In this document: in pieces, positions 24,090 through 59,871 of the stretch
How positions within the stretch are numbered: position 1 is the first letter of the stretch
How the letters are laid out: the number at the start of each line of letters is the position of its first letter
Assembly: GCA_023145615.1 (NCBI GenBank)
Contig: JAGLDK010000005.1
Span: forward strand, 1 to 63,039
Length of the DNA stretch: 63,039 nucleotides
DNA from: Ichthyobacteriaceae bacterium
Lineage (GTDB): Bacteria; Bacteroidota; Bacteroidia; Flavobacteriales; JADGDT01
Direction: 5' to 3'
Translations under genes and position numbers: made by a program
The notes under the pieces: generated by a model
The model's input: the letters and a program-made list of their open reading frames with translations, nothing else
Told to the model about the DNA's origin: nothing
The model's database searches: none

Positions 24090-24782
24090 TTAGCCATTTT
24101 TATAAGCCACCATTAATTTGTTTTTATCTAAAATACAGATTCTATCTTTTTTAAGTTCTATAACCTTTTCCTCGTTAAATTCTCTCAAAACTCTACCTAC
24201 ACTCATTACTGACATGTTAGAGAATTCGGCTAAATCTTTACGAGTTATAAACGACATAATTTCGTTGCTATCGAAAACATCGGTTGATAGAATTAACAAT
24301 GACCAAGCAATACGTCCGGTAAGTTGTTTCGACGAAGAATTAGCCATGTTGTTAAAATTACTAACACCTTTTTTATTGATGTTTTTTATTGTTTCGGCAG
24401 CAAACTTACTATTTTTATTTATCAGTTTTTCAAACAAGCTATTATCGAAACTGCAAACAATACAATCAGTTAATGCCTCTAGTGTGTGTTGCATTATGGT
24501 GTTTACAAAAAGCCCGTCAAGTCCTATTAAATTACATTTTTTTTCTATTGAAACTAATGTTCGGGTGCTAGTAAATTCTTTGTAGAATTTAACATAACCT
24601 TTCTTTAAAAATAAGATGTTTGTGTTTGCCGATCCTTGCTTAGCAAGTACTTCACCTTTCTTATAATTAACTATAATTTTGGTTTTTTCTAGTTCCTCTA
24701 AGTCCTCACTTGTAAGTACATCAAAGCACTTTGACCTACCCTTGCATTTTATGTCAATATACTCATTGTCTCTAAACGTCAT
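24090..24782 (-). CDS. Crp/Fnr-family transcriptional regulator
   Basis: 230 aa with a cNMP-binding-like beta-roll at the N-terminus and a C-terminal HTH 'RKDLAEFSNMSVMSVGRVLREF'. It has five Cys, including the N-terminal 'CKGRSKC'. It is divergent from the Mbx-like operon. Confidence 0.75.
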   Translation of the reverse strand: MTFRDNEYIDIKCKGRSKCFDVLTSEDLEELEKTKIIVNYKKGEVLAKQGSANTNILFLKKGYVKFYKEFTSTRTLVSIEKKCNLIGLDGLFVNTIMQHTLEALTDCIVCSFDNSLFEKLINKNSKFAAETIKNINKKGVSNFNNMANSSSKQLTGRIAWSLLILSTDVFDSNEIMSFITRKDLAEFSNMSVMSVGRVLREFNEEKVIELKKDRICILDKNKLMVAYKNG

Positions 24783-24993: not shown

Positions 24994-25001
24994 TAAATTT
25001 G
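24994..25001 (+). promoter_or_regulatory. -7 box TAAATTTG for the Mbx-like operon
   Basis: An exact TAnnTTTG match 40 nt upstream of the ATG at 25041. Confidence 0.45.
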
Positions 25002-25040
25002 CGAACAAGTATTGTAAAAATCACAATTATTATTAATCAC

Positions 25041-25529
25041 ATGAAGAATAATGCACTAATGTTTTTGACTTTGATGTCAGTTTGGGTGTTGCTTAACGCA
25101 TCATTAGACCCAACGCTATTGGCTATCGGAGCAGGTGTTAGTTTGCTTATATCTTTTGCTTTTTGCTCAAAATGCGATGTAATAAGTGGTATAAACTTAA
25201 GTCCCAAGGCTATAGCTTATTCATTTATGTTCGTTTTTGTGTTTATTGGCGAGTTGATAAAAGCAAACATTAGCATCTCAAAGAGAGTTTTAGCGCCTTC
25301 ACTACCTATTAATCCAGGTATTGTACAGGTAAAAACTAAATTGAAGTCGAAAGTTGGAAGAATGGTATTAGCAAATGCCATAACTCTTACGCCAGGTACA
25401 TTTACATTGGATATTAAAGGCGAAGACCTTTTTATTCATTGGGTAGATGTAAAATCAACAGATGTTGATGGAGCGACAAAAGAGATAGTATCAACGTTTG
25501 AAAAGTATTTGGAGGTAATGTATGGTTAG
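25041..25529 (+). CDS. MrpE/MnhE-like membrane subunit (Mbx subunit A equivalent)
   Basis: It carries the 'LANAITLTPGTFTLD' MnhE signature. The ORF-track start at 24999 is a TTG inside a TAAATTTG -7 box, and the first ATG is at 25041. Confidence 0.8.
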   Translation: MKNNALMFLTLMSVWVLLNASLDPTLLAIGAGVSLLISFAFCSKCDVISGINLSPKAIAYSFMFVFVFIGELIKANISISKRVLAPSLPINPGIVQVKTKLKSKVGRMVLANAITLTPGTFTLDIKGEDLFIHWVDVKSTDVDGATKEIVSTFEKYLEVMYG

Positions 25530-25782
25530 TTCATTTATTTATTTAGCTGTAGCGATTAGTTTAATCAGCGTTTTGATCGTCTTAGTAAGATTTGCTAAGG
25601 GACCAGAAAAAGTAGATCGCATTGTTGCTTTTGATGTTATTTCAATTATTGGAGTTTCATTAATATTATTAATAGCAACGTTGATGAAGAGAGTTATTTA
25701 CATTGATGTAGCAATAGTTTATGCTATTCTAGGATTTATCGGTGTAGTTGTTGTTTCACGATTCATTAAAAAAGGACTGTAA
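25522..25782 (+). CDS. MrpF/PhaF-like membrane subunit (Mbx B equivalent)
   Basis: 86 aa with 'RFAKGPEKVDRIVAFDVISI'. It overlaps the upstream gene by 8 nt. Confidence 0.8.
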   Translation: MVSSFIYLAVAISLISVLIVLVRFAKGPEKVDRIVAFDVISIIGVSLILLIATLMKRVIYIDVAIVYAILGFIGVVVVSRFIKKGL

Positions 25783-26144
25783 TGGGAGATTTGTTAGAAA
25801 TTATTGGAGGTGTATTTCTGGTATTAGGTAGTATTACTATGCTGTTAGCAGCAATTGGAATGTATCGTATGCCTGATTTTTATAACCGTATCCAGGTGGC
25901 TACAAAAGCTTCAACATTGGGTTTATTGCAAGTGGCTTTAGGAGTTGGATTAATTATGCCAGGATGGGCACCAAAATTGGTTGTTCTTTTTGTGTTTATA
26001 TTATTCACAAACCCTATTTCTTCTCATTTAGTAGCTCGTGCTGCTTACTTTACAAAAGTACCAATGAGTAAGGATACTAAAATTGACAAACTAAAAGAGT
26101 CAATTAGCAAAGCACATTTGAAAACTGTAAAAACTAAAGCTTAA
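25782..26144 (+). CDS. MrpG/PhaG-like membrane subunit (Mbx C equivalent)
   Basis: 120 aa with 'MYRMPDFYNRIQVATKASTLG'. It has a TAATG stop/start overlap. Confidence 0.8.
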   Translation: MGDLLEIIGGVFLVLGSITMLLAAIGMYRMPDFYNRIQVATKASTLGLLQVALGVGLIMPGWAPKLVVLFVFILFTNPISSHLVARAAYFTKVPMSKDTKIDKLKESISKAHLKTVKTKA

Positions 26145-26149
26145 GAAAG

Positions 26150-26392
26150 ATGTTAACAGTATTAGCAGCAATATTAGGAATAGCAGCTGTAGTAGGAGCA
26201 TACTACGCTATTCACAATGAAAAATTGACCGCAGCTATAATTGCATCAGGAATAGTTGGTATGGTGTCGTCAATATTATTTTTATTATTAGCAGCACCAG
26301 ATGTTGCAATGACAGAAGCAAGTATTGGTAGTGCATTAACTACTGCTATCTTTTTCTTCACTTTAAACAAAATAAGACAAACAAATGGATAA
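26150..26392 (+). CDS. MbhD/DUF4040-like small membrane subunit (Mbx D equivalent)
   Basis: 80 aa with two to three TM segments and 'AAPDVAMTEASIGSALTT', which resembles the MnhB N-terminal part. Confidence 0.7.
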   Translation: MLTVLAAILGIAAVVGAYYAIHNEKLTAAIIASGIVGMVSSILFLLLAAPDVAMTEASIGSALTTAIFFFTLNKIRQTNG

Positions 26393-27089
26393 GAAATTTA
26401 TGGTAGCGCTGCTTGTAGCAGCTATGGCAGTTATTCTATTTCCTTTGTTTCAATCATTTGAAGGAGGAACGCAATTAAGCGAATTAGGACAATATTACAC
26501 GCAAAATGGAGTAAGCGATACAGGAGCAACCAACTTGGTAGCATCTGTAGTTGTTACTTACAGAGGGTTAGATACTCTTGGTGAGGTAACTATTTTATTC
26601 CTTGCAGCATCTATTATCTCATTCTTTTTGAGTGTAAGTAAAGATGATAGAATTGAAAACAGAACAGTTATGTCTGTAACCGAAATTTTGAGTACCGCAT
26701 CTCAAACTCTTGTGCCAATTATTGTATTGGTAGGAGCTTATATTTTGGTTAACGGTCATTTAACTCCAGGTGGAGGTTTCCAGGGTGGTGCTATTATTGC
26801 ATCGGGTACCTTACTTATGTTCTTAGCAAATCCAAATCACAAATTAAACCACACAATTATTCATGTTATTGAATCTACTTCAGGTATTGCATTCGTAGCT
26901 ATTGGTGTTATTGGTGTTTTAATGATGGACGGCGGATTTTTAAGTAACAAGTTGTTCGATCTTGGTACTCCGGGTGAGGTTATCTCAGCAGGAGCTATGC
27001 CATTAATCAACATTTTCTTGGGACTTAAAGTAGGAACAGAGTTATCTAACGTTCTTGGAATATTTGTAGAATCACAAAACGAGAAATAA
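26385..27089 (+). CDS. MnhB/MrpB-domain membrane subunit (Mbx F equivalent)
   Basis: 234 aa with 'VVTYRGLDTLGEVTILF' and 'GHLTPGGGFQGGA'. It overlaps the upstream gene by 8 nt. Confidence 0.8.
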   Translation: MDKKFMVALLVAAMAVILFPLFQSFEGGTQLSELGQYYTQNGVSDTGATNLVASVVVTYRGLDTLGEVTILFLAASIISFFLSVSKDDRIENRTVMSVTEILSTASQTLVPIIVLVGAYILVNGHLTPGGGFQGGAIIASGTLLMFLANPNHKLNHTIIHVIESTSGIAFVAIGVIGVLMMDGGFLSNKLFDLGTPGEVISAGAMPLINIFLGLKVGTELSNVLGIFVESQNEK

Positions 27090-27090
27090 G

Positions 27091-27450
27091 ATGGATCAGT
27101 ATTTAGGACAAGTAGTGATGGCAATAGGATTTATTCTTGCAATTTTAGGGTTGTATGGCTTATTGTCTCAAAAAAACATGATAAAGATGATTCTTGGTTT
27201 CTCAATATTTACTACTGGTGTAAATATTATTATGGTTGCCATAGGATATGTAAAGGGAGGTACAGCACCTATTTTAGATGCTGAAGGAAATGCAGTTGCA
27301 AAATTTGTAGATCCAGTACCACAGGCTTTGGTATTAACATCAATCGTTATTGGATTAGGTGTTACAGCTATGATGTTGGCTTACGTTATGAAGTTGTATC
27401 AGGATAAAAAGAGTTTGAACATAAATGACTATAAAGATTTAAAATGGTAG
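27091..27450 (+). CDS. MrpC/NuoK-like membrane subunit (Mbx G equivalent)
   Basis: 119 aa with 'DPVPQALVLTSIVIGLGVTAMML'. Confidence 0.8.
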   Translation: MDQYLGQVVMAIGFILAILGLYGLLSQKNMIKMILGFSIFTTGVNIIMVAIGYVKGGTAPILDAEGNAVAKFVDPVPQALVLTSIVIGLGVTAMMLAYVMKLYQDKKSLNINDYKDLKW

Positions 27451-30400
27451 GACCAATTTATATTATAGCACTTGCTCTCGGACTTGCGTTTTTCCTTGGG
27501 TTTTTTGGAAAGTCGGCTAAGACTCTTTCAGTTTACCTAATGTTAGCAGGACTTGCTGCCATGACATGTATCTCTGGTACGTGGCTTAGCGCATTTATCG
27601 ACGGAAGTGTTTCGACACAGGAAATTTATACGGCTGGTTTTAAACCTCCGTATTCTATTAATTTAAGAATGGGTCTTGAGGAGGCTGCGTTTACGTTTAT
27701 TATTAACCTAATCGGACTTCTTGGAGGAACATACTTATTTCAAACACTTAAAAAAGCAGGTAATGCCGCAATGTCGGTATTTATCATACTTATTATGAGT
27801 TTGAATGTTATTGTAATGACACGTGATCTTTTCAACCTTTTCGTATTCGTTGAGATTGGAAGTATCGCTACTGCTGGTTTAATACTTTTAGACAAAGAGT
27901 CGAAAGCATTACAAGCCGGTTTGAAATACATGATTGCTACAGGAGTAATTTCTGGTTTATTATTAATCGGAATTATATTTGCTTATAGCTTTGTAGGTAA
28001 TTTAAATATTGATGCTATTATTGGTGCTAACCTTGCAGGTACAACTGCTGGTATGGTTGCTGCTTTTTTAATAGTAGTTGTTCTTGTACTTGAGTTAAAA
28101 CCTTTCCCAGCAAACGGATGGGGACTTGATGTTTACGAAGCTGCAAACCCTGGAGTTGGTGCATTAGTATCGGCTGCAATCGGAACTGCTAGTTTATTCG
28201 TACTTCACAAAGTTCTACCAATGGCTGGAGAATCTTTTTACCCTTACATTGTAGCGGTAGGAGTTATTACTTTTGTAGGTTCGAACTTAGTAGGTACTCA
28301 ACAAAAAAATGCAAACCGTTTGTTAGGATATTCTTCTATCGGACAACTTGGATTGGTTGTTGCAGTTATCGGACTAGAGCCTGTATTAGGAACTAGTTTT
28401 AAATTCATCGCATTTGCTTTAATAATCAATCACGTATTGGCTAAAGCAGGTTTGTTCTGGATTTCAGGAATTATTAGAAAAGCTAATATTTCAGAATGGT
28501 CGGTATTGCGTACAAAACCAGCATTACTTATTTCATTCTTGATTTTCATATTTGCTTTAATCGGATTCCCTCCATTCCCTTCTTTCTTCGGAAAATATCA
28601 GTTAATCATGAATTTGATTTCTTCTGATAACATTGGTACTGCTGCATTTATCCTTATCGGATCTTTTGCCGAAGGTATTTACATGTTCCGTTGGGTAGGC
28701 GATGCGTTGAAAAACGAAGTTGCTGAAGATGCTACTGAATCTCTTGATTGTGGAAAACTAAACAAGGTACTTCCTGTATTATTGATGGCTGTAGCTGTTG
28801 TTGCTGCCGGATATTTATCAATACCTTTTGTTGATGGAGCTTATTCTACATACTTTATTCCACTTGCATTTATTATGTTTATTGGATTAATTGATAGTTT
28901 CCTTCCTGCTGTTGTAAAGAACGTTGTTTCTATTGCAGGTATGGCATACTTCACTTACGTTATGTATCCAATTATTGAGGGTGATTTAATGCGTTCTATT
29001 TTCTTCGGAATATTTATGATTGGGGGTATTCTTACTCTTATTCCTGGATTTGCTAAGAAAGGTAAGCGCGAAGGTTTCTATCCTGCTGCATTATTAATGT
29101 ATGCTGGTTTAGCAACTATTATTACTGCTGATAACACTTTCGGATTTTTCTTCGGATGGGAATTAATGACTGCTGGTTCTTACTTCCTTATCATTCGTGG
29201 TAAACGTTCAAAAGCTCACGCATATTCATACATGTTGTTCTCTGTTGCCGGAGCTTACTTAATCCTTTTCGGATTCGGTTTTGCTTATCAAGCAATTGGT
29301 TCATCGTTGTTAGAAGGATTAGGAGAGATTAAATTGTTGCCTACATTGGCTTACACTGCATTGGCTATTGGTTTCATGACAAAAACGGCATCATTAGGTC
29401 TTCATATATGGTTGCCAGGTGCACACGGTGAAGCTGAGTCTGACGTATCTCCAATGGTATCGGCAGTATTGCTTAAAGCCGGAGTATTTGGTTTAATGTT
29501 GTTGTTCCTTAATATGGGAGACAATGGTGAAACTATTTTATACGTACTAGGTTGGGTTGGAGCATTTACTGCTTTAATGGGTAACCTTTCTGCAACTTTC
29601 CAGGAAGATGCAAAACGTATGTTGGCTTACTCTTCAATAGGGCAATTAGGATATATCCTTTTCGCTATTTCAATGATGACTACTTTAGGATGGTTAGCAG
29701 GTTTTACTTATGTGTTAAACCACTTTATGTTTAAATCTATTCTGTTTATGGTAGTTGGAGGAATTGTTGTAGCAACAGGTACTCACGATTTATACCGTAT
29801 GGGTGGACTTATCAAAAAAATGCCTTTAGCATTTATAGCTGTTATGGTTGCTATGATTACTATGGCTGGTCTTCCACCACTTTCAGGATTTGCAGGTAAA
29901 TGGTTGTTCTACAACGCTGTAATTCTTAAAGGATGGTACATTCAAGGAGTTATAGTATTCTTTGCAGGTACAATTGCATTTATGTATGCATACAAAATGC
30001 TTCACTCAATTTTCTTTGGTCAATTAAAAGATAACCACCGAAACTTAAAAGAGTTAAGTCCTGCAATATTAATTCCTGCTTATATTCTTATTGCAGGTAT
30101 TATGTACTTCTCAGTATTCCCACAAGACGTTCTACAACCTATAAACGAACTATTAGTTAGTTTAAATCTTGGAGATACACTTACATGGGCTGCCGATGGT
30201 AATGCAACTACAGTATTAAGTAACTGGAATGGTAATGCTGTTATGATAATTATTGTAACAACATTTGCTTTAGTATTGCTTTATACTATGCTAATTACTG
30301 GTAAAACTAAAAAACTTGAGCAGTTTAACATTGCTTATTCTGCCGAGCGTCCTTTCCGTCCTGAAACAACACATTATTCACATAATATGTTTGCAGGATT

Positions 30401-30581
30401 AAATAAGGCTATTGGATTTTTAGTAGCTCCTGGAATTACAAGTTTCTGGAATAATGTAAGTACTATGGTAATGGATTTTGCTGGTATGGTGAGAAGAATT
30501 TACAGTGGTAATGGACAGGTTTATGCTGGTCAGATCATTGTTTATATCATAGTTTTCTATTTTATAGCATTAGGTAAATAA
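27444..30581 (+). CDS. Fused double antiporter-like subunit (two NuoL/M/N-MrpD modules; Mbx H + H' equivalent)
   Basis: 1045 aa. Module 1 has 'LFVFVEIGS' (TM5 Glu) and 'LKYMIATG'. Module 2 has 'FFGWELMTAGSYF' and 'MTKTASLGLHIWLPGAHGEAESDVSPMVSAVLLKAG'. Confidence 0.85.
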   Translation: MVGPIYIIALALGLAFFLGFFGKSAKTLSVYLMLAGLAAMTCISGTWLSAFIDGSVSTQEIYTAGFKPPYSINLRMGLEEAAFTFIINLIGLLGGTYLFQTLKKAGNAAMSVFIILIMSLNVIVMTRDLFNLFVFVEIGSIATAGLILLDKESKALQAGLKYMIATGVISGLLLIGIIFAYSFVGNLNIDAIIGANLAGTTAGMVAAFLIVVVLVLELKPFPANGWGLDVYEAANPGVGALVSAAIGTASLFVLHKVLPMAGESFYPYIVAVGVITFVGSNLVGTQQKNANRLLGYSSIGQLGLVVAVIGLEPVLGTSFKFIAFALIINHVLAKAGLFWISGIIRKANISEWSVLRTKPALLISFLIFIFALIGFPPFPSFFGKYQLIMNLISSDNIGTAAFILIGSFAEGIYMFRWVGDALKNEVAEDATESLDCGKLNKVLPVLLMAVAVVAAGYLSIPFVDGAYSTYFIPLAFIMFIGLIDSFLPAVVKNVVSIAGMAYFTYVMYPIIEGDLMRSIFFGIFMIGGILTLIPGFAKKGKREGFYPAALLMYAGLATIITADNTFGFFFGWELMTAGSYFLIIRGKRSKAHAYSYMLFSVAGAYLILFGFGFAYQAIGSSLLEGLGEIKLLPTLAYTALAIGFMTKTASLGLHIWLPGAHGEAESDVSPMVSAVLLKAGVFGLMLLFLNMGDNGETILYVLGWVGAFTALMGNLSATFQEDAKRMLAYSSIGQLGYILFAISMMTTLGWLAGFTYVLNHFMFKSILFMVVGGIVVATGTHDLYRMGGLIKKMPLAFIAVMVAMITMAGLPPLSGFAGKWLFYNAVILKGWYIQGVIVFFAGTIAFMYAYKMLHSIFFGQLKDNHRNLKELSPAILIPAYILIAGIMYFSVFPQDVLQPINELLVSLNLGDTLTWAADGNATTVLSNWNGNAVMIIIVTTFALVLLYTMLITGKTKKLEQFNIAYSAERPFRPETTHYSHNMFAGLNKAIGFLVAPGITSFWNNVSTMVMDFAGMVRRIYSGNGQVYAGQIIVYIIVFYFIALGK

Positions 30582-30591
30582 TAACTATTTA

Positions 30592-30641
30592 ATCAATTGC
30601 TATTAGTTATAAATATTGGTTTGTAACTAATAGCAATTGAT
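30592..30641 (+). promoter_or_regulatory. 18-bp perfect hairpin in the H/H'-to-M spacer of the Mbx-like operon
   Basis: ATCAATTGCTATTAGTTA-N14-TAACTAATAGCAATTGAT, with no T-run after it. Confidence 0.5.
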
Positions 30642-30663
30642 ATTTAGTTTGATAATTATAATT

Positions 30664-31581
30664 ATGGATTATAGTATAACAAAATTTTTATGGTCATTGC
30701 TTGGGCTATTCATTATCCTTAACTGGGGAATGCTTATGTCGTCAACAATGCGTAGAGTAGGAGCAAGACTTGCTGGTAGAATTGGAGTACCAATGTATCA
30801 ACCTTGGATTGATCTTGCTAAATTAATGGCTCTTAAGACTTGGTTGTCTCATGGAGTTATGTACTACATAGGACCTGTATTTCGTCTTGTAGGAGGTGTA
30901 GGTATGTTCCTTTTTATGCCGATAATTTTCGGTTCTGAAATTTGGAGTAACTATTCTTTTTCGGGAGATTTAATCTTATTGCTTTATTTCCAATCATTCG
31001 GAATGTTAGGTATGGCAATGGGTGCATCTGATAGTTCATCGCCACACGCCTCAATAGGTATTTCTCGTGGTTTAGCTCAGTTTGCAGCAGTAGAGGTTCC
31101 TATGACTTTAGCAGTTATTGCAATTGCTATTCAACACCAAACGTTTTCGTTTAATTCAATTATGGAAGCTCAACAAGGTGGAGTATTAAATTGGACTATT
31201 TTTACTAACCCATTAGCATCTATTGCTGGTATGTTAGCAATGTTAGGAGCAATGAGCCACTCGCCATTTAACCTTGTAAAAGCACCAAACGAAATTCCAA
31301 TAGGACCACCAACTGAATATCACTCATCATTTTTGAGTGTTTTACGTACAAACAGTGCTATTATTCACGTAGTAGAAGCTGCTTTGTTCATGAACTTATT
31401 CTTCGGTGGAGCTGATACTTGGTTAATGTACATTGTTAAAACTTTCTTCGTTTACTTTATTTCGGTATTTGTAGGTATGGTTTTCCCTCGTATGAAAGTT
31501 GAAGATTCGGTACGTTGGTTCCTTAAATGGCCAACAGCAGTTGGAATTATTGCAGTATTAGTAGCTGCATATTGGAAGTAA
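30664..31581 (+). CDS. NuoH/MbhM-like membrane subunit (Mbx M equivalent)
   Basis: It has 'GISRGLAQFAAVEVPM' and 'SPFNLVKAPNEIPIGPPTEYHS', as in NuoH/HyfC. The ORF-track TTG start at 30637 lies inside a hairpin arm, and the first ATG is at 30664. Confidence 0.8.
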   Translation: MDYSITKFLWSLLGLFIILNWGMLMSSTMRRVGARLAGRIGVPMYQPWIDLAKLMALKTWLSHGVMYYIGPVFRLVGGVGMFLFMPIIFGSEIWSNYSFSGDLILLLYFQSFGMLGMAMGASDSSSPHASIGISRGLAQFAAVEVPMTLAVIAIAIQHQTFSFNSIMEAQQGGVLNWTIFTNPLASIAGMLAMLGAMSHSPFNLVKAPNEIPIGPPTEYHSSFLSVLRTNSAIIHVVEAALFMNLFFGGADTWLMYIVKTFFVYFISVFVGMVFPRMKVEDSVRWFLKWPTAVGIIAVLVAAYWK

Positions 31582-31813
31582 TTTTTAATTGCCTTTTGCA
31601 AATTAAAAACGTTATAGGCTTTAAGCTTTAATTCGAATGCTTTATTAGCATCGTTAAGGCTTAATGCTTTAGTTGTAAATAAAAATGTTGGTTTGTAATA
31701 ATTATTTGATTTTCAAATAATTGCACATCATTTTTGCATTGGTAGTATAATTTGTACTACTGTATAAAGCATTATAGCGTATAGCTTTTTTTGCTAAAGC
31801 AAAAAAAAAGAAA

Positions 31814-32476
31814 ATGGAAGAGAAAAAAGATAAGTTTTTAGCACCTGAAAACGAAGTTAGACAGGTGTCTGCTCCTGACGGATCTATTATTGAAGTTGAT
31901 CCGTTAAAGGATTACTTCAGTCAAGAGAAGCCAGAGCCATATAAAGTAGGTTCAGGGCCTGTTGAGAATTTCCTTAACTGGGCACGTGCTGAGAGTTTAT
32001 GGGTATTAGGATTTGGAACTGGATGTGGAAGTATTGAAATTCCACCATTGGTAACACCTCGTTTCGATATGTACCGTTTTGGTGTGCAAATGAGAGCTAC
32101 TCCACGTCAATCAAACGTATTTATTATTTCAGGATACCTTGCCATAAAAACTCTTAAAAGAGCTATTCGTGCTTACGAGCAAATGCCTAGCCCTAAATAT
32201 ATAGTTGCACTTGGTAGTTGTACAATTAATGGAGGTATGTATTACGATTCATACAATACCATTAATCGTTTAGATCAATATTTGCCAGTTGATGCTTATA
32301 TAGCTGGATGTATGCCACGTCCGGAGGCTTTATTAGCTGGTTTTGCTGAGTTGAAAAAACTTATTAAAGCTGGTAAAGGTCACAAGGCAAACGAGTATGT
32401 TGAAAATCTTGAATGGTACAAAACAAACCAAAAGAAGATTATCAAGGATTGGAATATGCCTGATTACAACTGGTAA
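31814..32476 (+). CDS. NuoB/MbhJ-like [4Fe-4S] subunit with only three cysteines (Mbx J equivalent)
   Basis: 220 aa with 'GFGTGCGSIEI', 'LGSCTINGG' and 'IAGCMPRPEAL'. These are the only three Cys in the protein. Confidence 0.85.
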   Translation: MEEKKDKFLAPENEVRQVSAPDGSIIEVDPLKDYFSQEKPEPYKVGSGPVENFLNWARAESLWVLGFGTGCGSIEIPPLVTPRFDMYRFGVQMRATPRQSNVFIISGYLAIKTLKRAIRAYEQMPSPKYIVALGSCTINGGMYYDSYNTINRLDQYLPVDAYIAGCMPRPEALLAGFAELKKLIKAGKGHKANEYVENLEWYKTNQKKIIKDWNMPDYNW

Positions 32477-32591
32477 TATTGAGTTGAAGCGTTTATTGTT
32501 GTAAAATTTAATTTATCAGCAAAACAATTATAGTTATGTTGATAAATGATTAAATCATTCAACGATTAAACAATTAAACATTGAAGAAAAA

Positions 32592-33170
32592 ATGCAAAAA
32601 GGAATAAATAATTTGATTGAAAAATTCGGTGCCTCTGATTTAGTTGAGAGAAGATCGGGTTTGTCTTTTATTACTGTTGATCAAACTAAAGCTGTTGCCG
32701 CTATCACACATCTTAAGGATATTGATGGTTATACTGTTTTATCTTTTATTACAGCAGCAGATTGGATTGAAGATGGAAAGATGCAATTAACTTATATGTT
32801 GAATAATCCTGCTGAAGTTGCAGAGATTGCTATTCGTGTAATGTTAGAGCGTAAAAAAGAAGCTGGAGAATCAATGGAGACAATTCATCACCTTTGGCCA
32901 AATGCTAAAAAATGGCAACAGGAGTTGAAAGAAATGTACGGTGTTGATTTCCCAACAAGCCCAGGTGTTAACGATTCTTTCATTCTTGAAGGATGGGATG
33001 ATATGCCACCTAACCGTCGCGATTTCGATACTAAGCAATATGCAGAGGACACTTTCTTCCCTCGTGGAGGTCGTGTTACTCACGATCCTGCTACTTACAT
33101 GCGCGAACAGCTTGATCCAAAAGATCCTCAGTACTATACTAAGAAGAAGAAAAAAGACATTAATAGTTAA
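32592..33170 (+). CDS. NuoC/MbhK-like 30-kDa subunit (Mbx K equivalent)
   Basis: 192 aa with 'HHLWPNAKKWQQELKEMYGVDF', which corresponds to the NuoC 'W..A.W.ERE..DMFGI' region. Confidence 0.75.
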   Translation: MQKGINNLIEKFGASDLVERRSGLSFITVDQTKAVAAITHLKDIDGYTVLSFITAADWIEDGKMQLTYMLNNPAEVAEIAIRVMLERKKEAGESMETIHHLWPNAKKWQQELKEMYGVDFPTSPGVNDSFILEGWDDMPPNRRDFDTKQYAEDTFFPRGGRVTHDPATYMREQLDPKDPQYYTKKKKKDINS

Positions 33171-33180
33171 TTTTTGAGAG

Positions 33181-34374
33181 ATGGGAATTAGTAAATTATT
33201 TACGATGAATGAAGACAGAAGTCTTTATCCTGAACATGATGAAAATGGGAAACCTATCATCGACCTTGAGTCTCATAAGTTTTTAAAACTATGGCAAGGA
33301 CCTCAACATCCTGGTATTACTGGTAACATGTCGTTAGAATTGACAGTAAGTGGAGATGAAATTGTAGAATCTAAAACTCACGTAGGTTACCTACACCGTG
33401 GATTTGAGAAGTTACTTGAACGTAGATTGTTTGTGCAATGTATGCCAACATCTATCCGTTTGTGTGTTGCCGAACCAGATCCAAATGAGTACATAGTATC
33501 AACAGCTGTTGAGGAGCTTGGAGGAATTGAAATTCCTGATAATGCTAAATGGTTGAGAATGCTTTCGTTAGAAATGGCTCGTTTACAAGTTTTGTTACGT
33601 GGTGTTCCTGGTCAGGCTGGTACTTTTGCACTTGGTTTAGGATACCAGTGGGGTAACTACCTTCGTGATTTAATTCTTGATAGTTTTGAAGAATTAACAG
33701 GTGGGCGTGTTTATCATATGTACATTATTCCTGGTGGAGTTCGTGGTAATTTACCTGAAGGCTTTAAAGGGCGTATGTTAGAAAAACTTAAGCTAATTGA
33801 TGAGTTTGTTGTAAAAATAGACAAGTTGATTTTTCAAAACGTTGTTTTCGAAAGCAGAGCCAAAGGATTAGGTCATATACCTAAAGAGTGGGTTGATAAA
33901 TATGGAGTTTACGGACCTGCAGCTCGTGCGTCAGGTGTTATGCGCGATGTGCGTAAAACTAACCCTTACTTAAACTACGATCAATTAGATTTCGAACCTC
34001 ATGTAACTACAGAGGGAGATGTTTATGCTCGTTCGGTTGTTAGATACAATGATCTTCAAATGACTGTTGACATGATTCGTCAGATTTTAGATAAGATGCC
34101 TGATGGTGGAGATATTAGAGCGCAAACTCCAAACGTTTTACACTGGAAAATTCCTAAAGGAGAAACTTATGTAAAGTGTGAAAGTTCTCGTGGTGAGTAT
34201 GGTATGTATTTTGTGACTGACGGTAGCGATAAGCCTCGTAGAGCTCACTTAAAAGGACCTTCTTATACTCACGCAAATGCACTTTTAGATAAATTGCTTA
34301 TTAATGCTAACATAGCAGATACAGCGGCAATTATGGTTTCTTTAGCAACTTGTCCTCCAGAAATAGAGAGGTAA
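33181..34374 (+). CDS. NuoD/MbhL/MbsL-like catalytic-core subunit lacking a complete NiFe site (Mbx L equivalent)
   Basis: 397 aa with 'GPQHPGITGNMSL' and 'GYLHRGFEKL'. The N-terminal motif is 'RLCVAE' and the C-terminal end is 'ATCPPEIER', so both positions read CxxE rather than CxxC. Confidence 0.85.
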   Translation: MGISKLFTMNEDRSLYPEHDENGKPIIDLESHKFLKLWQGPQHPGITGNMSLELTVSGDEIVESKTHVGYLHRGFEKLLERRLFVQCMPTSIRLCVAEPDPNEYIVSTAVEELGGIEIPDNAKWLRMLSLEMARLQVLLRGVPGQAGTFALGLGYQWGNYLRDLILDSFEELTGGRVYHMYIIPGGVRGNLPEGFKGRMLEKLKLIDEFVVKIDKLIFQNVVFESRAKGLGHIPKEWVDKYGVYGPAARASGVMRDVRKTNPYLNYDQLDFEPHVTTEGDVYARSVVRYNDLQMTVDMIRQILDKMPDGGDIRAQTPNVLHWKIPKGETYVKCESSRGEYGMYFVTDGSDKPRRAHLKGPSYTHANALLDKLLINANIADTAAIMVSLATCPPEIER

Positions 34375-34402
34375 ATTGGTTTAACTGTTGAAATGTTGAA
34401 CT

Positions 34403-34426
34403 GTTGAAATACTTCGGTGTTTTAAC
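34403..34426 (+). promoter_or_regulatory. UUCG-tetraloop hairpin in the L-to-N spacer of the Mbx-like operon
   Basis: GTTGAAATAC-TTCG-GTGTTTTAAC gives a 10-bp stem including two G-U pairs. It is preceded by CTGTTGAAAT direct repeats. Confidence 0.45.
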
Positions 34427-34468
34427 AACTAAACAAAAAACTATTAAACGAATAAACATTAAGAAAAA

Positions 34469-36277
34469 ATGAATATAAAAAAGTTATTAACACCGTTTAC
34501 TGCTTGGGGTAATGTAACTAAAGATCCTGTTACAATTAAGGATCCTTTAAACGAGCGTCCAGGTGCAGATAGATATAGAGGTTTTCACCGAAACGATGTA
34601 GAAGCATGTGTTGGTTGTGGTTCTTGTGAAGATATTTGCGAGAATGAAGCAATTGACTTAATGCCTGCAAAGGATACAAAAGATGGTGATTCAGGATTAC
34701 GCCCAATGATTGATTACGGTCGTTGTTGCTGGTGTGCTCTTTGTGTTGATGTTTGTACTACAAACTCACTTACATTGAGTAACGAATATACTTGGATTTC
34801 TACCGACCCTGAAGATTTCAGATATATACCTGGTATAGATAAAAAAGAATGGGATAATAATAACGATAAAGGTTGGAAAAAACCTGAGCCAAACTACGAA
34901 TTCTATCCATTAAAAAGAATTCAACCGTCTCACTTATCGCCCGAAGATCGTTCCGATTCGTTTATCGAAATGATGCATGGTTATTCAAAAGACCAAGCAA
35001 TGCAAGAAGCCGATCGTTGTGTTGAGTGTGGTATTTGTACTGCAACTTGTCCTGCACACATGGGTATTCCTGAGTATATCAAAGCTATTCGTAACGATGA
35101 TTTAGAGGAAGGTTTACGTATACTTTACGATACAAACCCATTACCAGAAATTTGTGGACGTATTTGTACTCATAAATGTGAAACTGTTTGTACAATCGGA
35201 CATAAAGGAGATCCATTATCTATCCGTTGGCTGAAACGTTATATTGCCGATCAAAATCCATCGGAGAGATATAAGAAAATTCTTGAAACTGAAAACCTTG
35301 TATCAAAAGGGAAGAAAGTTGCAATTATTGGTGCTGGTCCTTCTGGATTATCAGCAGCTCACTACTTAGTACAGATGGGTTACGAAGTTAAGATTTTTGA
35401 AAAACTTGCAGCTGCCGGTGGTATGATGCGTTACGGTATTCCATCGTATCGTTTACCTTACGACCAAATAGACAAGGATATTGATTACATCTTAAGTCTT
35501 GGAGTAGATATTCAGTATAACATAAACGTTGGAAACGGTGAAGGAGAAATTTCTCTTGAAACTTTAGGAAATGATTATGATGCTGTATTCTCTGGTACTG
35601 GGTTACACTTAGGACGTTCAACAGGTATTCCTGGTTCTGATAACAAGCACGTTTACGCTTCTCCAGATTTATTACGTTGGATAGTTGAAGGAAAAGAATT
35701 TGAGGTTCCTGAAAACGTAGTAGTTATTGGTGGTGGTAACGTGGCAATGGACATTACTCGTTCAATGGCTCGTTTGCAGATGAAGAAATACGGAAAAGTT
35801 GGTGTTATTACTACTGCTCTTGAAGGAGAAGATAAAATGCCAGCCGATCGTGAAGAAATTGACGAAGGACGTGAAGAAGGATGTATTATCAACCCAGGTT
35901 GGGCTCCAAAATCAGTGGAAATTGATTCGAATGGTGTACCAACAGGATTAAATGTTGTTAAATGTCACTCTTTATTCGATTCTGAAGGACGTTTCAACCC
36001 TCAAACTGATGAAGACAATAAGGAATTCTGGCCTGGTACAATGATTATTGAATCAATTGGACAGGGTATGGATATTTCTTACCTAGATGGAAAATACAAA
36101 GATCAGTTAGAATTCGGACCAAGAGGAAGAGTTCAAACAGATGAGTATTACCAAACAGGTTTACCATGGTTATTCATGGGTGGAGACATCATTAAAGGAC
36201 CAGATGTTATTACAGGTATTGCTACAGGTCATAAAGCTGCAGTAGGTATCGACAGAATGCTAAATCCAGAATTCTAG
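34469..36277 (+). CDS. Fusion of a NuoI/MbhN-like 2x[4Fe-4S] ferredoxin domain with a GltD/SudA/NfnB-type NAD(P)H-dependent FAD oxidoreductase (Mbx N equivalent plus extra module)
   Basis: 602 aa. The N-terminus has 'CVGCGSCEDIC' and 'CCWCALCVDVC'. The middle has 'RCVECGICTATCP...EICGRICTHKCETVC'. Further on come 'VAIIGAGPSGLSAAHYL', 'GGMMRYGIPSYRLP', 'VVVIGGGNVAMD' and 'FMGGDIIKGPDVITGIATGHKAA'. Confidence 0.85.
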   Translation: MNIKKLLTPFTAWGNVTKDPVTIKDPLNERPGADRYRGFHRNDVEACVGCGSCEDICENEAIDLMPAKDTKDGDSGLRPMIDYGRCCWCALCVDVCTTNSLTLSNEYTWISTDPEDFRYIPGIDKKEWDNNNDKGWKKPEPNYEFYPLKRIQPSHLSPEDRSDSFIEMMHGYSKDQAMQEADRCVECGICTATCPAHMGIPEYIKAIRNDDLEEGLRILYDTNPLPEICGRICTHKCETVCTIGHKGDPLSIRWLKRYIADQNPSERYKKILETENLVSKGKKVAIIGAGPSGLSAAHYLVQMGYEVKIFEKLAAAGGMMRYGIPSYRLPYDQIDKDIDYILSLGVDIQYNINVGNGEGEISLETLGNDYDAVFSGTGLHLGRSTGIPGSDNKHVYASPDLLRWIVEGKEFEVPENVVVIGGGNVAMDITRSMARLQMKKYGKVGVITTALEGEDKMPADREEIDEGREEGCIINPGWAPKSVEIDSNGVPTGLNVVKCHSLFDSEGRFNPQTDEDNKEFWPGTMIIESIGQGMDISYLDGKYKDQLEFGPRGRVQTDEYYQTGLPWLFMGGDIIKGPDVITGIATGHKAAVGIDRMLNPEF

Positions 36278-36535: not shown

Positions 36536-38629
36536 CTAATTTAAATCGTGCAATATGTTTACCGATTCTTCAATGTAAGCATCTTTTGTTAAATACTTAT
36601 GCCATCTTTTTCGTTTTCCAGCTAATGACGAATCTAGTTTAACTAGTTCTAATTCCTTTTTTGTTGAAACAAAATCAAGGTTATTATTGTACTCCGATAT
36701 AGGTTTGAATTTTTCTATTTCCATTTCAAACTCTTCGTTTTCTTTGTTGTAAGTATCAATATTAAGCGATGCTTTAACATCTTCCTGACGGCTTTTAAGC
36801 CATTTAGCATTTTCGTCAATCAAAATAAATTGTTCTGATTCCGAAATACGTTTCGCACTTTTCTTTTTAATATTTTTAATATTATTATTTAAGTGCCATT
36901 TCTTGTACTTAAGAGGAGTAATAGTATCCCAAGCCATTGCGTTATCTTGTTCCTTTTCTCCAATATCTAAATACATATATCGGTTTGGTAACTTTACGTC
37001 CGATTCAACTCCCTTTAATTGAGTAGCTCCTCCATTTATTCTGTAAAACTTTTGGATTGTTAACTTTATTGCACCAAGTGGTTTTACATCTAATTTTGGA
37101 TTAATCAAATTGTCTAAATTCCAAATATTCTGCACAGTTCCTTTTCCGTAAGAATGATCGCTACCAATAATAACAGCTCTACCATAATCTTTCATTGCAG
37201 CTGCAAGTATTTCAGATGCCGATGCCGAGTATTGATTAATCATTATAACTAATGGGCCACTCCATAAAACGCTTTTATCTTTATCCTTGTATATCTCAGG
37301 GTCTTTATCTCTCGATTTTACTTGTACAATAGGTCCGTCTTTAATAAATAATCCCGACATTTTTATTGCAGCTTGTAAAGATCCACCACCATTATTTCTA
37401 AGGTCTAGTATAATACCTTCAACACCTTCTTTCTTTAATTTTATTATTTCTTTTTCAACATCATCGGCAGAGTTACGTGCATTTTTATCGTTAAAGTTTA
37501 CGTAAAATTTAGGAAGATTAATTAACCCATATTTAATATTGTTTTTTTGTATAACAACACTTTTAGCAAATGTTTCTTCTATTTCAACAACATCTCGGGT
37601 AATGCTAATTTCCTTTTTGCTACCATTAATTTTCTTAACCAAAAGTTTTACAACAGTACCTTTTTTACCTTTAATTAATTCAACAGCATCATCTAAACGC
37701 ATACCAACAACGTTTACAGCTTCGCCATCGTTTCCTTGAGATACTTTTATAATTTTATCTTCAACCTCTAAATCTCCTTGTTTCCACGATGGGCTACCAC
37801 TTATAACTTCTATAATTGTAATGTAGCTATCTTTAACTTGTAAACGAGCTCCAATACCTTCAAGCTGTCCCGACATACTTTGGTCGAAACGTTTTTTGTC
37901 TTTTGGTGCAAAATAAGTAGTGTGTGGATCGAATTGAGCTGTTAATACATTTAAATAAATCGATAACCATTCATCTCTGGTTAATTCAACCATTCTTTTA
38001 TTAAAAGCCTCTACAGTTTTTAAAACACCTTTTCTAGCTTCTTTTTCAAGTTCTTCATTTGTTTTTACAACATATTCGGGGTTGTCTTTAATTTCTTTTT
38101 CTTGAGTTTCTAAAGCATCAGTATATCTTATTAATACGTTGTACTTTAAGTATAATCTCCAACGCTCATTAAGTTCATTTAAATCTTTTGCAAAATCAAG
38201 CTTATCAACATCCGAAACCAAATATTCATCCTTACTAAAATTCATTGGTTTAGAAAGAATTTCGGTATAAATTTCTTTAGTATTTTCAATACGCTTGTGT
38301 ACATTTTTATATGTTAAATCGAAAAAAGTTAAATCGCCAAATTTTAACTGATCATCAATTAAAGTATTAAAAGGATGGAATTTATCTATGTCAGATTGTA
38401 TAAAATACCTCTTCGAATAATCAAGTCTTTCAATATAACTCTCGTAAAAATCTTCCGAAAATTTATTGTCAAGACTGTGAGGAGCGTAATGTCCTTCGTT
38501 TAAAACATACTGAATAAGCTCAAGTATAACTCTATCTTTATCTGGTTTAGGTTCTAAAAACCCGTAAGTTACTCCTGCAACTACAAGTATTAACGAAAGA
38601 ATTGCTATTCTAAATGATTTCTTCTTCAT
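36536..38629 (-). CDS. Carboxy-terminal processing (tail-specific) peptidase, family S41
   Basis: 697 aa with a signal anchor, a PDZ-like region, and the Ser/Lys dyad context 'QYSASASEILAAA' and 'SYGKGTVQ'. Confidence 0.85.
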   Translation of the reverse strand: MKKKSFRIAILSLILVVAGVTYGFLEPKPDKDRVILELIQYVLNEGHYAPHSLDNKFSEDFYESYIERLDYSKRYFIQSDIDKFHPFNTLIDDQLKFGDLTFFDLTYKNVHKRIENTKEIYTEILSKPMNFSKDEYLVSDVDKLDFAKDLNELNERWRLYLKYNVLIRYTDALETQEKEIKDNPEYVVKTNEELEKEARKGVLKTVEAFNKRMVELTRDEWLSIYLNVLTAQFDPHTTYFAPKDKKRFDQSMSGQLEGIGARLQVKDSYITIIEVISGSPSWKQGDLEVEDKIIKVSQGNDGEAVNVVGMRLDDAVELIKGKKGTVVKLLVKKINGSKKEISITRDVVEIEETFAKSVVIQKNNIKYGLINLPKFYVNFNDKNARNSADDVEKEIIKLKKEGVEGIILDLRNNGGGSLQAAIKMSGLFIKDGPIVQVKSRDKDPEIYKDKDKSVLWSGPLVIMINQYSASASEILAAAMKDYGRAVIIGSDHSYGKGTVQNIWNLDNLINPKLDVKPLGAIKLTIQKFYRINGGATQLKGVESDVKLPNRYMYLDIGEKEQDNAMAWDTITPLKYKKWHLNNNIKNIKKKSAKRISESEQFILIDENAKWLKSRQEDVKASLNIDTYNKENEEFEMEIEKFKPISEYNNNLDFVSTKKELELVKLDSSLAGKRKRWHKYLTKDAYIEESVNILHDLN

Positions 38630-59572: not shown

Positions 59573-59643
59573 TGCCCCATGGTGTAATGGTAACACATCG
59601 GTTTTTGGTACCGCCATTCAAGGTTCGAGTCCTTGTGGGGTAA
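59573..59643 (+). tRNA. tRNA-Gln (anticodon UUG), copy 1
   Basis: Hand-folded cloverleaf. The acceptor stem is TGCCCCA/TGGGGTA, the D stem is GTGT/ACAC, the anticodon loop is TT-TTG-GT, and the T arm is CAAGG-TTCGAGT-CCTTG. No CCA is encoded. Confidence 0.85.
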
Positions 59644-59678
59644 CTTCTTTTTTTGCTTGTTCATTCAAATATTGTAAT

Positions 59679-59749
59679 TGCCCCATGGTGTAATGGTAAC
59701 ACATCGGTTTTTGGTACCGCCATTCAAGGTTCGAGTCCTTGTGGGGTAA
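59679..59749 (+). tRNA. tRNA-Gln (anticodon UUG), copy 2
   Basis: Its 71-nt sequence is identical to copy 1. Confidence 0.85.
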
Positions 59750-59789
59750 CTTCTTTTTTTTAAGAATTTACAATATTTATACATAATGA

Positions 59790-59860
59790 TGCCCCATGGT
59801 GTAATGGTAACACATCGGTTTTTGGTACCGCCATTCAAGGTTCGAGTCCTTGTGGGGTAA
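59790..59860 (+). tRNA. tRNA-Gln (anticodon UUG), copy 3
   Basis: Its 71-nt sequence is identical to copy 1, and terminators follow at 59872-59905 and 59938-59977. Confidence 0.85.
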
Positions 59861-59871
59861 CATCATTTATT

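Follow-up and report, generated by a model that had tools for sequence, protein, structure and literature searches.

A predicted bacterial MbsJ orthologue with three cysteine cluster ligands, encoded in an MBS/Mbx-like operon of a Bacteroidota bacterium

We analysed a 63,039-nucleotide stretch of DNA from an Ichthyobacteriaceae bacterium of the Bacteroidota (contig JAGLDK010000005.1, positions 1 to 63,039; hereafter, the window), which carries a 12-gene MBS/Mbx-like operon (24999–36277, + strand). The ninth gene of this operon encodes J (31814–32476, +), a protein of 220 amino acids in the NuoB/PSST family that is the predicted carrier of a proximal [4Fe–4S] cluster. J has three cysteines, and these coincide with the three cluster ligands of MbsJ from the archaeon Pyrococcus furiosus, of which the gene is, by sequence comparison, the bacterial counterpart and orthologue. 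A proximal cluster held by three cysteines is already known from the literature as the hallmark of this family (PMC7684303, PMC8165549), so the feature is real but not novel. By analogy with the archaeal enzyme, J probably belongs to a bacterial complex of the MBS/Mbx type that has an open catalytic iron in its proximal [4Fe–4S] cluster, takes electrons from NAD(P)H and couples turnover to ion translocation.

J carries the three cluster ligands of archaeal MbsJ

The J open reading frame begins at the first ATG after a stop codon and agrees with the public gene call. A preliminary description of this DNA, made from the letters and open reading frames alone, had claimed that the whole protein contains only three cysteines, and the translation confirms this: C71 in ‘GFGTGCGSIEI’ (32024–32026, +), C136 in ‘LGSCTINGG’ (32219–32221, +) and C166 in ‘IAGCMPRPE’ (32309–32314, +, together with M167). 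Pfam assigns J to Oxidored_q6, the NuoB/PSST family, and the NCBIfam matches are generic NuoB subfamily models only. The best sequence match in the PDB is P. furiosus MbsJ (6U8Y_J, E = 3.5e-60). In the HMMER alignment, residues 51–212 of J run along MbsJ without a gap and with a constant offset of 43, which places C71, C136 and C166–M167 on C28, C93 and C123–M124 of MbsJ; C28, C93 and C123 are the cluster ligands. Gly68 (codon GGA; 32015–32017, +) falls on C25, the fourth cysteine of the archaeal enzyme, which is not a ligand. An AlphaFold2 model of the J monomer, which we used for the fold and the N-terminal extension (mean predicted local distance difference test score (pLDDT), 68.8, with values below 50 in the cluster loops 69–95 and 137–142), has 6u8y_J as its top Foldseek match (E = 2.8e-13; template modelling score, 0.68; 51% identity over 165 columns).

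The function of these positions is known from work on the archaeal complex. In MBS, the cysteine ligands of the proximal [4Fe–4S] cluster are solely MbsJ C28, C93 and C123, and the cluster is site-differentiated (PMC7684303). The relevant loop of MbsJ is three residues shorter than that of MbhJ, the corresponding hydrogenase subunit, and C25 is therefore too distant to act as a ligand (PMC7684303); J aligns to MbsJ here without a gap, and its cysteines would lie on the same shortened loop. Enzymes with the MbsJ-C25A substitution or the MbsL-C85A/C385A substitutions keep wild-type dimethyltrisulfide reductase activity, whereas treatment with ferricyanide turns the cluster into a [3Fe–4S] form with the loss of about 98% of the activity, which Fe2+ brings back (PMC7684303). 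The unique iron of the cluster is the proposed catalytic site, at which polysulfide is bound and cleaved (PMC7684303). The same work agrees with the statement of the preliminary description that MBS reduces sulfane sulfur at an iron–sulfur cluster that is site-differentiated, and not at the cysteines of the L subunit.

J also has an N-terminal extension (amino acids 1 to about 49; 31814–31960, +) that has no counterpart in P. furiosus MbsJ but is conserved throughout its bacterial clade. Homology begins at residue 51 with MbsJ (at its residue 8) and at about residues 48–50 with NuoB. The extension proposed earlier is thus genuine and is shorter than the roughly 60 amino acids then given, at about 43–50. 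Seven of its residues (V18, P21, D22, G23, P30, Y34 and P40) are invariant among 39 homologues, and tblastn matches in other phyla begin at query residues 1–16. The AlphaFold2 model folds it into a β-hairpin (residues 16–28) and a helix (residues 30–34), with a block-mean pLDDT of about 82 for residues 11–30.

The three-cysteine pattern is fixed among orthologues

The 120 closest database homologues of J share at least 74% identity with it. Among these, the first ligand lies in ‘LGFGTGCGSIE’ in 118 and in ‘LGYGTGCGSIE’ in one, and both C136 and C166 are present in all 120. We also scanned one genome per species of the GTDB and found a relative of J in at least 587 genomes. The best 80 of these loci come from at least six phyla, with Bacteroidota, Chlorobiota, Alpha-, Beta- and Gammaproteobacteria, Marinimicrobia, Aminicenantes and Spirochaetes among the groups covered. 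Glycine takes the place of MbsJ C25 and ‘GCMPRPE’ is intact in 80 of these 80 loci, and ‘GSCTINGG’ is found in 79.

A conserved fourth cysteine in J was found neither among the 120 close homologues, nor among 150 representatives at 50% identity, nor in the 80 genome loci. Additional cysteines are sporadic and confined to the N-terminal extension (query position 36 in 22 of the 120 homologues and position 46 in eight). The two outcomes that the preliminary description had set against its own reading, a fourth conserved cysteine from J and orthologues with the normal four-cysteine pattern, therefore did not appear.

In a search of 1.84 billion representatives clustered at 50% identity, sequences of the MBS type (those with both ‘TGCG’ and ‘GCMPRPE’) form a small group that is sharply apart from the NuoB-type sequences, all of which have ‘CC’. 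Within the MBS-type group, the equivalent of C25 is kept by the representatives from Thermococcus, Thermotogota and Chitinispirillaceae/Deltaproteobacteria and is lost in those from Spirochaetales and WOR-3, as well as throughout the clade of the window.

J differs from its complex I and hydrogenase relatives

A relative outside the MBS family is NuoB/Nqo6/PSST, the subunit of complex I that holds cluster N2. J shares with it the fold, the loop length, three of the four ligands and, among other residues, E75, D85, R88 and P97–R98. When J is aligned to bovine PSST with HMMER, residues 50–188 show no gap, C71 falls on the first cysteine of the N2 tandem pair and Gly72 (GGA; 32027–32029, +) falls on the second, just as the preliminary description had read this site. 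Complex I carries the tandem pair in ‘G(L/T)(A/S)CC’, and J has ‘GTGCG’ in its place. Among representatives at 50% identity, ‘CC’ is found in 110 of 110 NuoB-type sequences and ‘CG’ in 10 of 10 MBS-type sequences, which indicates that the three-cysteine pattern defines a clade and did not arise by chance. Eleven positions of J (T69, G70, G72, P78, Y108, T113, L114, N139, L153, A164 and M167) are invariant in the MBS clade and differ from the 110 NuoB representatives.

Two of these positions lie close to ligands. Met167 (32312–32314, +) directly follows the third ligand, within the ‘GCMPRPE’ that is invariant in the MBS-type clade, where 110 of 110 NuoB-type sequences have ‘GCPP’. Asn139, in ‘CTINGG’, is likewise specific to the MBS-type clade.

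The differences from complex I extend to the rest of the complex. Complex I combines ‘CC’ and ‘GCPP’ in its small subunit with quinone-binding histidine and tyrosine residues in the partner subunit, a membrane arm of NuoA/J/K/L/M/N and an input module of NuoEFG. The complex of J combines ‘CG’ and ‘GCMP’ with a partner that lacks the quinone ligands and with an Mrp-type arm, and the operon has no NuoE, NuoF or NuoG.

Group 4 [NiFe] hydrogenases have a small subunit with four cysteines, including a CxxC motif, and two CxxC motifs in the large subunit that bind Ni–Fe. Here, the loop of J at the site of the hydrogenase CxxC holds one cysteine, and L has CxxE for CxxC at both sites. The membrane-bound hydrogenase subunit MbhJ (PDB 6CFW, chain J; E = 1.7e-28) is a homologous proximal-cluster small subunit from another Mrp-built complex. 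MbhJ has four cysteines (CxxC plus two) to the three of J, and its loop is reported to be three residues longer; the matched stretches are 136 amino acids in MbhJ and 132 in J. The partner of MbhJ carries all four [NiFe] cysteines, two of which are missing from L.

The L subunit and the question of a fourth ligand

L (33181–34374, +) is an MbsL orthologue by its match to 6u8y_L (E = 3.4e-87) and retains two vestigial [NiFe] cysteines, C95 (33463–33465, ‘RLCVAEPD’) and C391 (34351–34353, ‘LATCPPEIER’), which align to C85 and C385 of MbsL. The other two of the four [NiFe] cysteines are lost; the second cysteine of each CxxC motif is replaced by glutamate (E98 and E394). L also lacks the residues that ligate the quinone head group: His38 and Tyr87 of Nqo4 correspond to T47 and V96, both of which are invariant among 71 orthologues. 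As L lacks the Nqo4 quinone ligands and the operon is of the MBS type in its make-up, the predicted complex is not a quinone reductase, nor is it a hydrogenase; it is of the MBS/Mbx type, with an input module linked to NAD(P)H.

The preliminary description had supposed that one iron of the cluster is either not ligated by protein or is ligated by another subunit, with Cys95 or Cys391 of L as examples. The general claim is consistent with the lack of a conserved fourth cysteine in J and with a ligand set equal to that of MbsJ, whereas the two L cysteines are disfavoured. Among the 71 complete orthologous L sequences, both cysteines are present in 42, C95 alone in 19 (with C391 replaced by tyrosine) and neither in 10. 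Because they vary in this way, C95 and C391 are not obligatory ligands, and we rejected them as such; the activity of the MbsL C85A/C385A enzyme points in the same direction (PMC7684303). Glutamates E98 and E394, at the sites of the lost second cysteines of the two hydrogenase motifs, are invariant in the L orthologues, as are D100, E103, E396 and R397.

Counted by position, C391 is tyrosine in 29 of the 71 L orthologues, and C95 is alanine, serine or threonine in 10.

An Mrp-type arm joined to an NAD(P)H-type flavoprotein

The remaining genes of the operon supply the membrane arm and the electron input. Six small membrane subunits of the Mrp arm come first (24999–27450, +; Pfam assignments MnhE/A, MrpF/B, MnhG/C, MbhD, MbhE–MnhB and a NuoK-like G) and are syntenic in all complete related loci. 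They are followed by a fusion of H and H′ (27444–30581, +) of 1,045 amino acids with two antiporter-like Proton_antipo_M modules, the halves of which match NCBIfam PRK08377 and PRK08668; this fusion is found in 72 of 72 related loci. The M subunit (30637–31581, +; Pfam NADHdh, E = 6.3e-45) is NuoH-like and anchors the peripheral arm in the membrane; its gene is followed by those of J, the NuoC-like K (32592–33170, +; Pfam Complex1_30kDa), L and N. The Mrp-derived membrane arm contains A, B, C, D, E and G together with H, H′ and the anchor M in the gene order of MBS, with H and H′ fused, and the order of genes in the operon is identical in 80 of 80 related loci.

N (34469–36277, +; Pfam Fer4_20 and Pyr_redox_2) is a fusion protein of 602 amino acids. 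Its residues 7–116 match the MbsN/NuoI-like domain with two [4Fe–4S] clusters (6u8y_N, E = 3.8e-19), and residues 155–600 match NfnB, the large subunit of NfnI, and GltD (4ylf_B, E = 1.5e-69), proteins with two [4Fe–4S] clusters, an FAD and a site for NAD(P)H. NCBIfam PRK13984 (‘putative oxidoreductase’) covers the fusion over its full length, and 64 of 65 related loci keep it. In archaeal MBS, N is a stand-alone protein with two [4Fe–4S] clusters that accepts electrons from ferredoxin. Here the MbsN-like domain forms one protein with the NfnB/GltD-like domain, which would imply coupling to NAD(P)H rather than to ferredoxin.

The spacer between M and J (31582–31813) is unusually long (232 nucleotides) and AT-rich. 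At about 31786–31807, just 5′ of the start codon of J, it contains a hairpin of 9 bp (TTTTTTTGC-taaa-GCAAAAAAA). Judging from the starts of tblastn matches, the spacing of M and J appears to be shorter in most related loci.

A proposed mechanism and its alternatives

The three-cysteine pattern, its exact match to the ligands of MbsJ, its fixation across orthologues and the architecture of the operon are observations; what we infer from here on is an open iron site, the entry of electrons from NAD(P)H and, most of all, a substrate and a direction of reaction. We propose that C71, C136 and C166 of J bind the proximal [4Fe–4S] cluster, the fourth iron of which would have no cysteinyl ligand and would face a chamber between J, L and M. 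If the enzyme works as MBS does, this unique iron would be the catalytic site, binding sulfane sulfur and reductively cleaving its S–S bond in polysulfide or an organic polysulfide. Electrons would pass from NAD(P)H to FAD and two [4Fe–4S] clusters in the NfnB/GltD-like domain of N, then through the two [4Fe–4S] clusters of its MbsN-like domain to the cluster of J. The Mrp-type arm, made up of the fused H–H′ and A, B, C, D, E and G, would couple turnover to the translocation of ions.

Several points weigh against parts of this proposal. The potentials are about −320 mV for NAD(P)H and about −260 mV for polysulfide reduction, which by our estimate yields about 10 kJ per two electrons. Electron transfer from NAD(P)H to polysulfide would therefore release little energy, a poor fit with an arm of two pumps. 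The carriers of the operon also include genera, such as Celeribacter, Sedimenticola, Lamprobacter and Rhodoferax, that are not known to reduce sulfur and are in part aerobic or sulfur-oxidizing; many carriers are sulfur oxidizers or facultative aerobes. Together, the low energy yield and these carriers suggest that the substrate or the direction may differ from those of archaeal MBS, and it is plausible that the bacterial enzyme uses another acceptor or operates in reverse. The fourth iron may, in addition, have a ligand other than cysteine, for which T69, S73 and E75 of J and E98 and E394 of L are candidates, and the modelled cluster loops have a pLDDT below 50. Finally, our literature search turned up genomic mentions of the bacterial complex (PMC4758237, PMC9431562) and no study of its biochemistry or structure.

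The energetic and taxonomic points lead to a departure from the archaeal model that we regard as possible, although we lean away from it. The clade with the NfnB fusion and without C25 (at least 587 species genomes) might not be a ferredoxin-driven sulfur reductase, and might use its open-iron cluster for other chemistry or in the reverse direction. For example, it may use the ion-motive force to pass electrons from sulfide, polysulfide or persulfide on to NAD(P)+, or it may use NAD(P)H to reduce sulfur or an organic (poly)sulfide of higher potential. If so, cluster-based S–S chemistry would be a widespread mesophilic trait.

A further alternative, which we consider unlikely, dispenses with sulfur chemistry altogether. 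If one of the five candidate residues in J and L supplied a fourth, non-cysteinyl ligand, the cluster would serve as a relay or in coupling only, and the complex would be an ion-translocating oxidoreductase of ferredoxin and NAD(P)(H), in keeping with the older view of Mbx as a ferredoxin:NADP+ oxidoreductase. The NfnB/GltD-like NAD(P)H module of N would suit such an enzyme, mbx-like operons with gltD have been read as reducing NAD(P)+ (PMC4758237), and many of the carriers are not known to reduce sulfur. The acidic residues E98, D100, E394 and E396 of L are also invariant while its cysteines vary. However, the archaeal prototype reduces sulfane sulfur, not NADP+, at its unique iron (PMC7684303), and the strict conservation of the three-cysteine signature speaks for an open site that has a function. 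E75 of J is equally invariant in NuoB, which has four cysteines, and so is not a ligand specific to this clade.

That J natively holds a [3Fe–4S] cluster instead of a site-differentiated [4Fe–4S] cluster is very unlikely. Three cysteines are what a cluster of three irons needs, and the MBS cluster does become [3Fe–4S] on oxidation; however, the native, active form of MBS is [4Fe–4S], the [3Fe–4S] form being about 98% inactive (PMC7684303), and the ligand geometry of J matches that of MbsJ without gaps. Negligible, and prompted by the generic ‘NuoB’ naming in databases and nothing else, is the idea that a cysteine is missing through sequencing error, a strain mutation or the decay of a NuoB or hydrogenase small-subunit gene: an identical J protein on three contigs of two assemblies rules out a sequencing error, the codons of Gly68 and Gly72 (both GGA) are each two substitutions from a cysteine codon (TGT or TGC), the pattern recurs in 119 of the 120 homologues and in 80 of the 80 loci, the operon is intact and syntenic, J has neither a tandem CC nor a hydrogenase CxxC, and the operon lacks a NuoEFG module. 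From these sequence comparisons, we exclude an error, a pseudogene and a strain-specific mutation as the source of the pattern.

Relation to archaeal MBS and bacterial mbx-like operons

The preferred reading, a bacterial MBS/Mbx-type complex with an open iron, draws on a close likeness to P. furiosus MBS (PMC7684303). The two have in common the positions of the ligand cysteines, ‘TGCG’, ‘GCMPRPE’ and the C-terminal helices of J, as well as two vestigial [NiFe] cysteines in L and an Mrp-type arm with two antiporter-like modules. They differ in that P. furiosus MbsJ has C25 and no extension, whereas J of the window has glycine and a conserved extension of about 43 amino acids. MbsH and MbsH′ are separate and MbsN is a stand-alone protein that accepts electrons from ferredoxin, whereas in the window H and H′ are fused and N is fused to the NfnB/GltD-like flavoprotein. 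The hosts differ too: a hyperthermophilic archaeon in one case and a low-GC (32%) Bacteroidota bacterium in the other.

The type of operon found in the window has already been noted from genomes. Mbx-like operons of Thermotoga and proteobacteria were described in which a flavoprotein related to gltD replaces NuoI, NuoD has vestigial Ni–Fe cysteines and a rubrerythrin gene often comes last, and those with the gltD-related flavoprotein were interpreted as reducing NAD(P)+ (Degli Esposti 2015, PMC4758237). The mbx operon of Thermotoga maritima is induced by S0 (PMC9431562). These operons and T. maritima MBX follow the same plan as the window, with an Mrp module, homologues of NuoH, NuoB, NuoC and NuoD, and a homologue of NuoI linked to a GltD-like flavoprotein; the representative from Thermotogota has retained the equivalent of C25 (‘HYCTGCG’), where the clade of the window has glycine. 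In the literature that we found, the point about three cysteines is not made for the bacterial mbx-like complexes, none of which is known to have been purified.

The three-cysteine, site-differentiated cluster has been proposed as the catalytic centre of MBS and is a key step in models that derive complex I from hydrogenases. The window offers no new principle in this respect, but it lends the published MBS mechanism the support of natural variation: a large bacterial clade does without C25 of MbsJ, and often without one or both of the vestigial L cysteines, while the three ligands, ‘TGCG’ and ‘GCMPRPE’ stay invariant. As predicted from the genes, an MBS-type catalytic module with an NAD(P)H flavoprotein attached is common among mesophilic Bacteroidota, Proteobacteria and other phyla. 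The bacterial complex is within experimental reach through its cultured carriers, among them Prolixibacter denitrificans DSM 27267, Celeribacter and Aliiruegeria.

Genomic surroundings

A gene for a regulator of the Crp/Fnr family (24090–24782, −; Pfam cNMP_binding and HTH_Crp_2) lies upstream of the operon and diverges from it. A homologue is found upstream in 30 of 54 related loci by clustering of open reading frames, and in 28 loci by tblastn. Some of these homologues have a cysteine-rich motif near the N terminus (for example, ‘CLLCQNKSAC’ in Prolixibacter), hinting at the sensing of redox state or oxygen.

Other genes accompany the operon in its relatives. Directly 3′ of N, a gene of about 328 codons for a DHO_dh-like protein (a dihydroorotate dehydrogenase-like FMN TIM barrel) is found in 28 of 57 loci by clustering of open reading frames and in 29 by tblastn, and 18 related loci have a gene for a CBS-domain protein. 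In eight of 57 loci, the 4 kb downstream of the operon contain a rubrerythrin-like gene, and tblastn places one somewhere in 14 loci, all of them proteobacterial, in agreement with the published description of such operons (PMC4758237). None of these three genes is present in the window, in which N is followed by a convergent gene for a tail-specific protease (36536–38629, −). The flanks of the operon in the window hold no sulfur-metabolism genes, only housekeeping genes (NusA, IF-2, FabH, AccB/AccC, SurE, LpxB and Prc).

The nearest homologues of J, at 90% identity, come from metagenome-assembled genomes of Flavobacteriales and Ichthyobacteriaceae. Towards the end of the window are three tandem tRNA-Gln(UUG) genes (59573–59861, +), about 35–40 nucleotides apart, each with an Rfam score of 57.5 bits.

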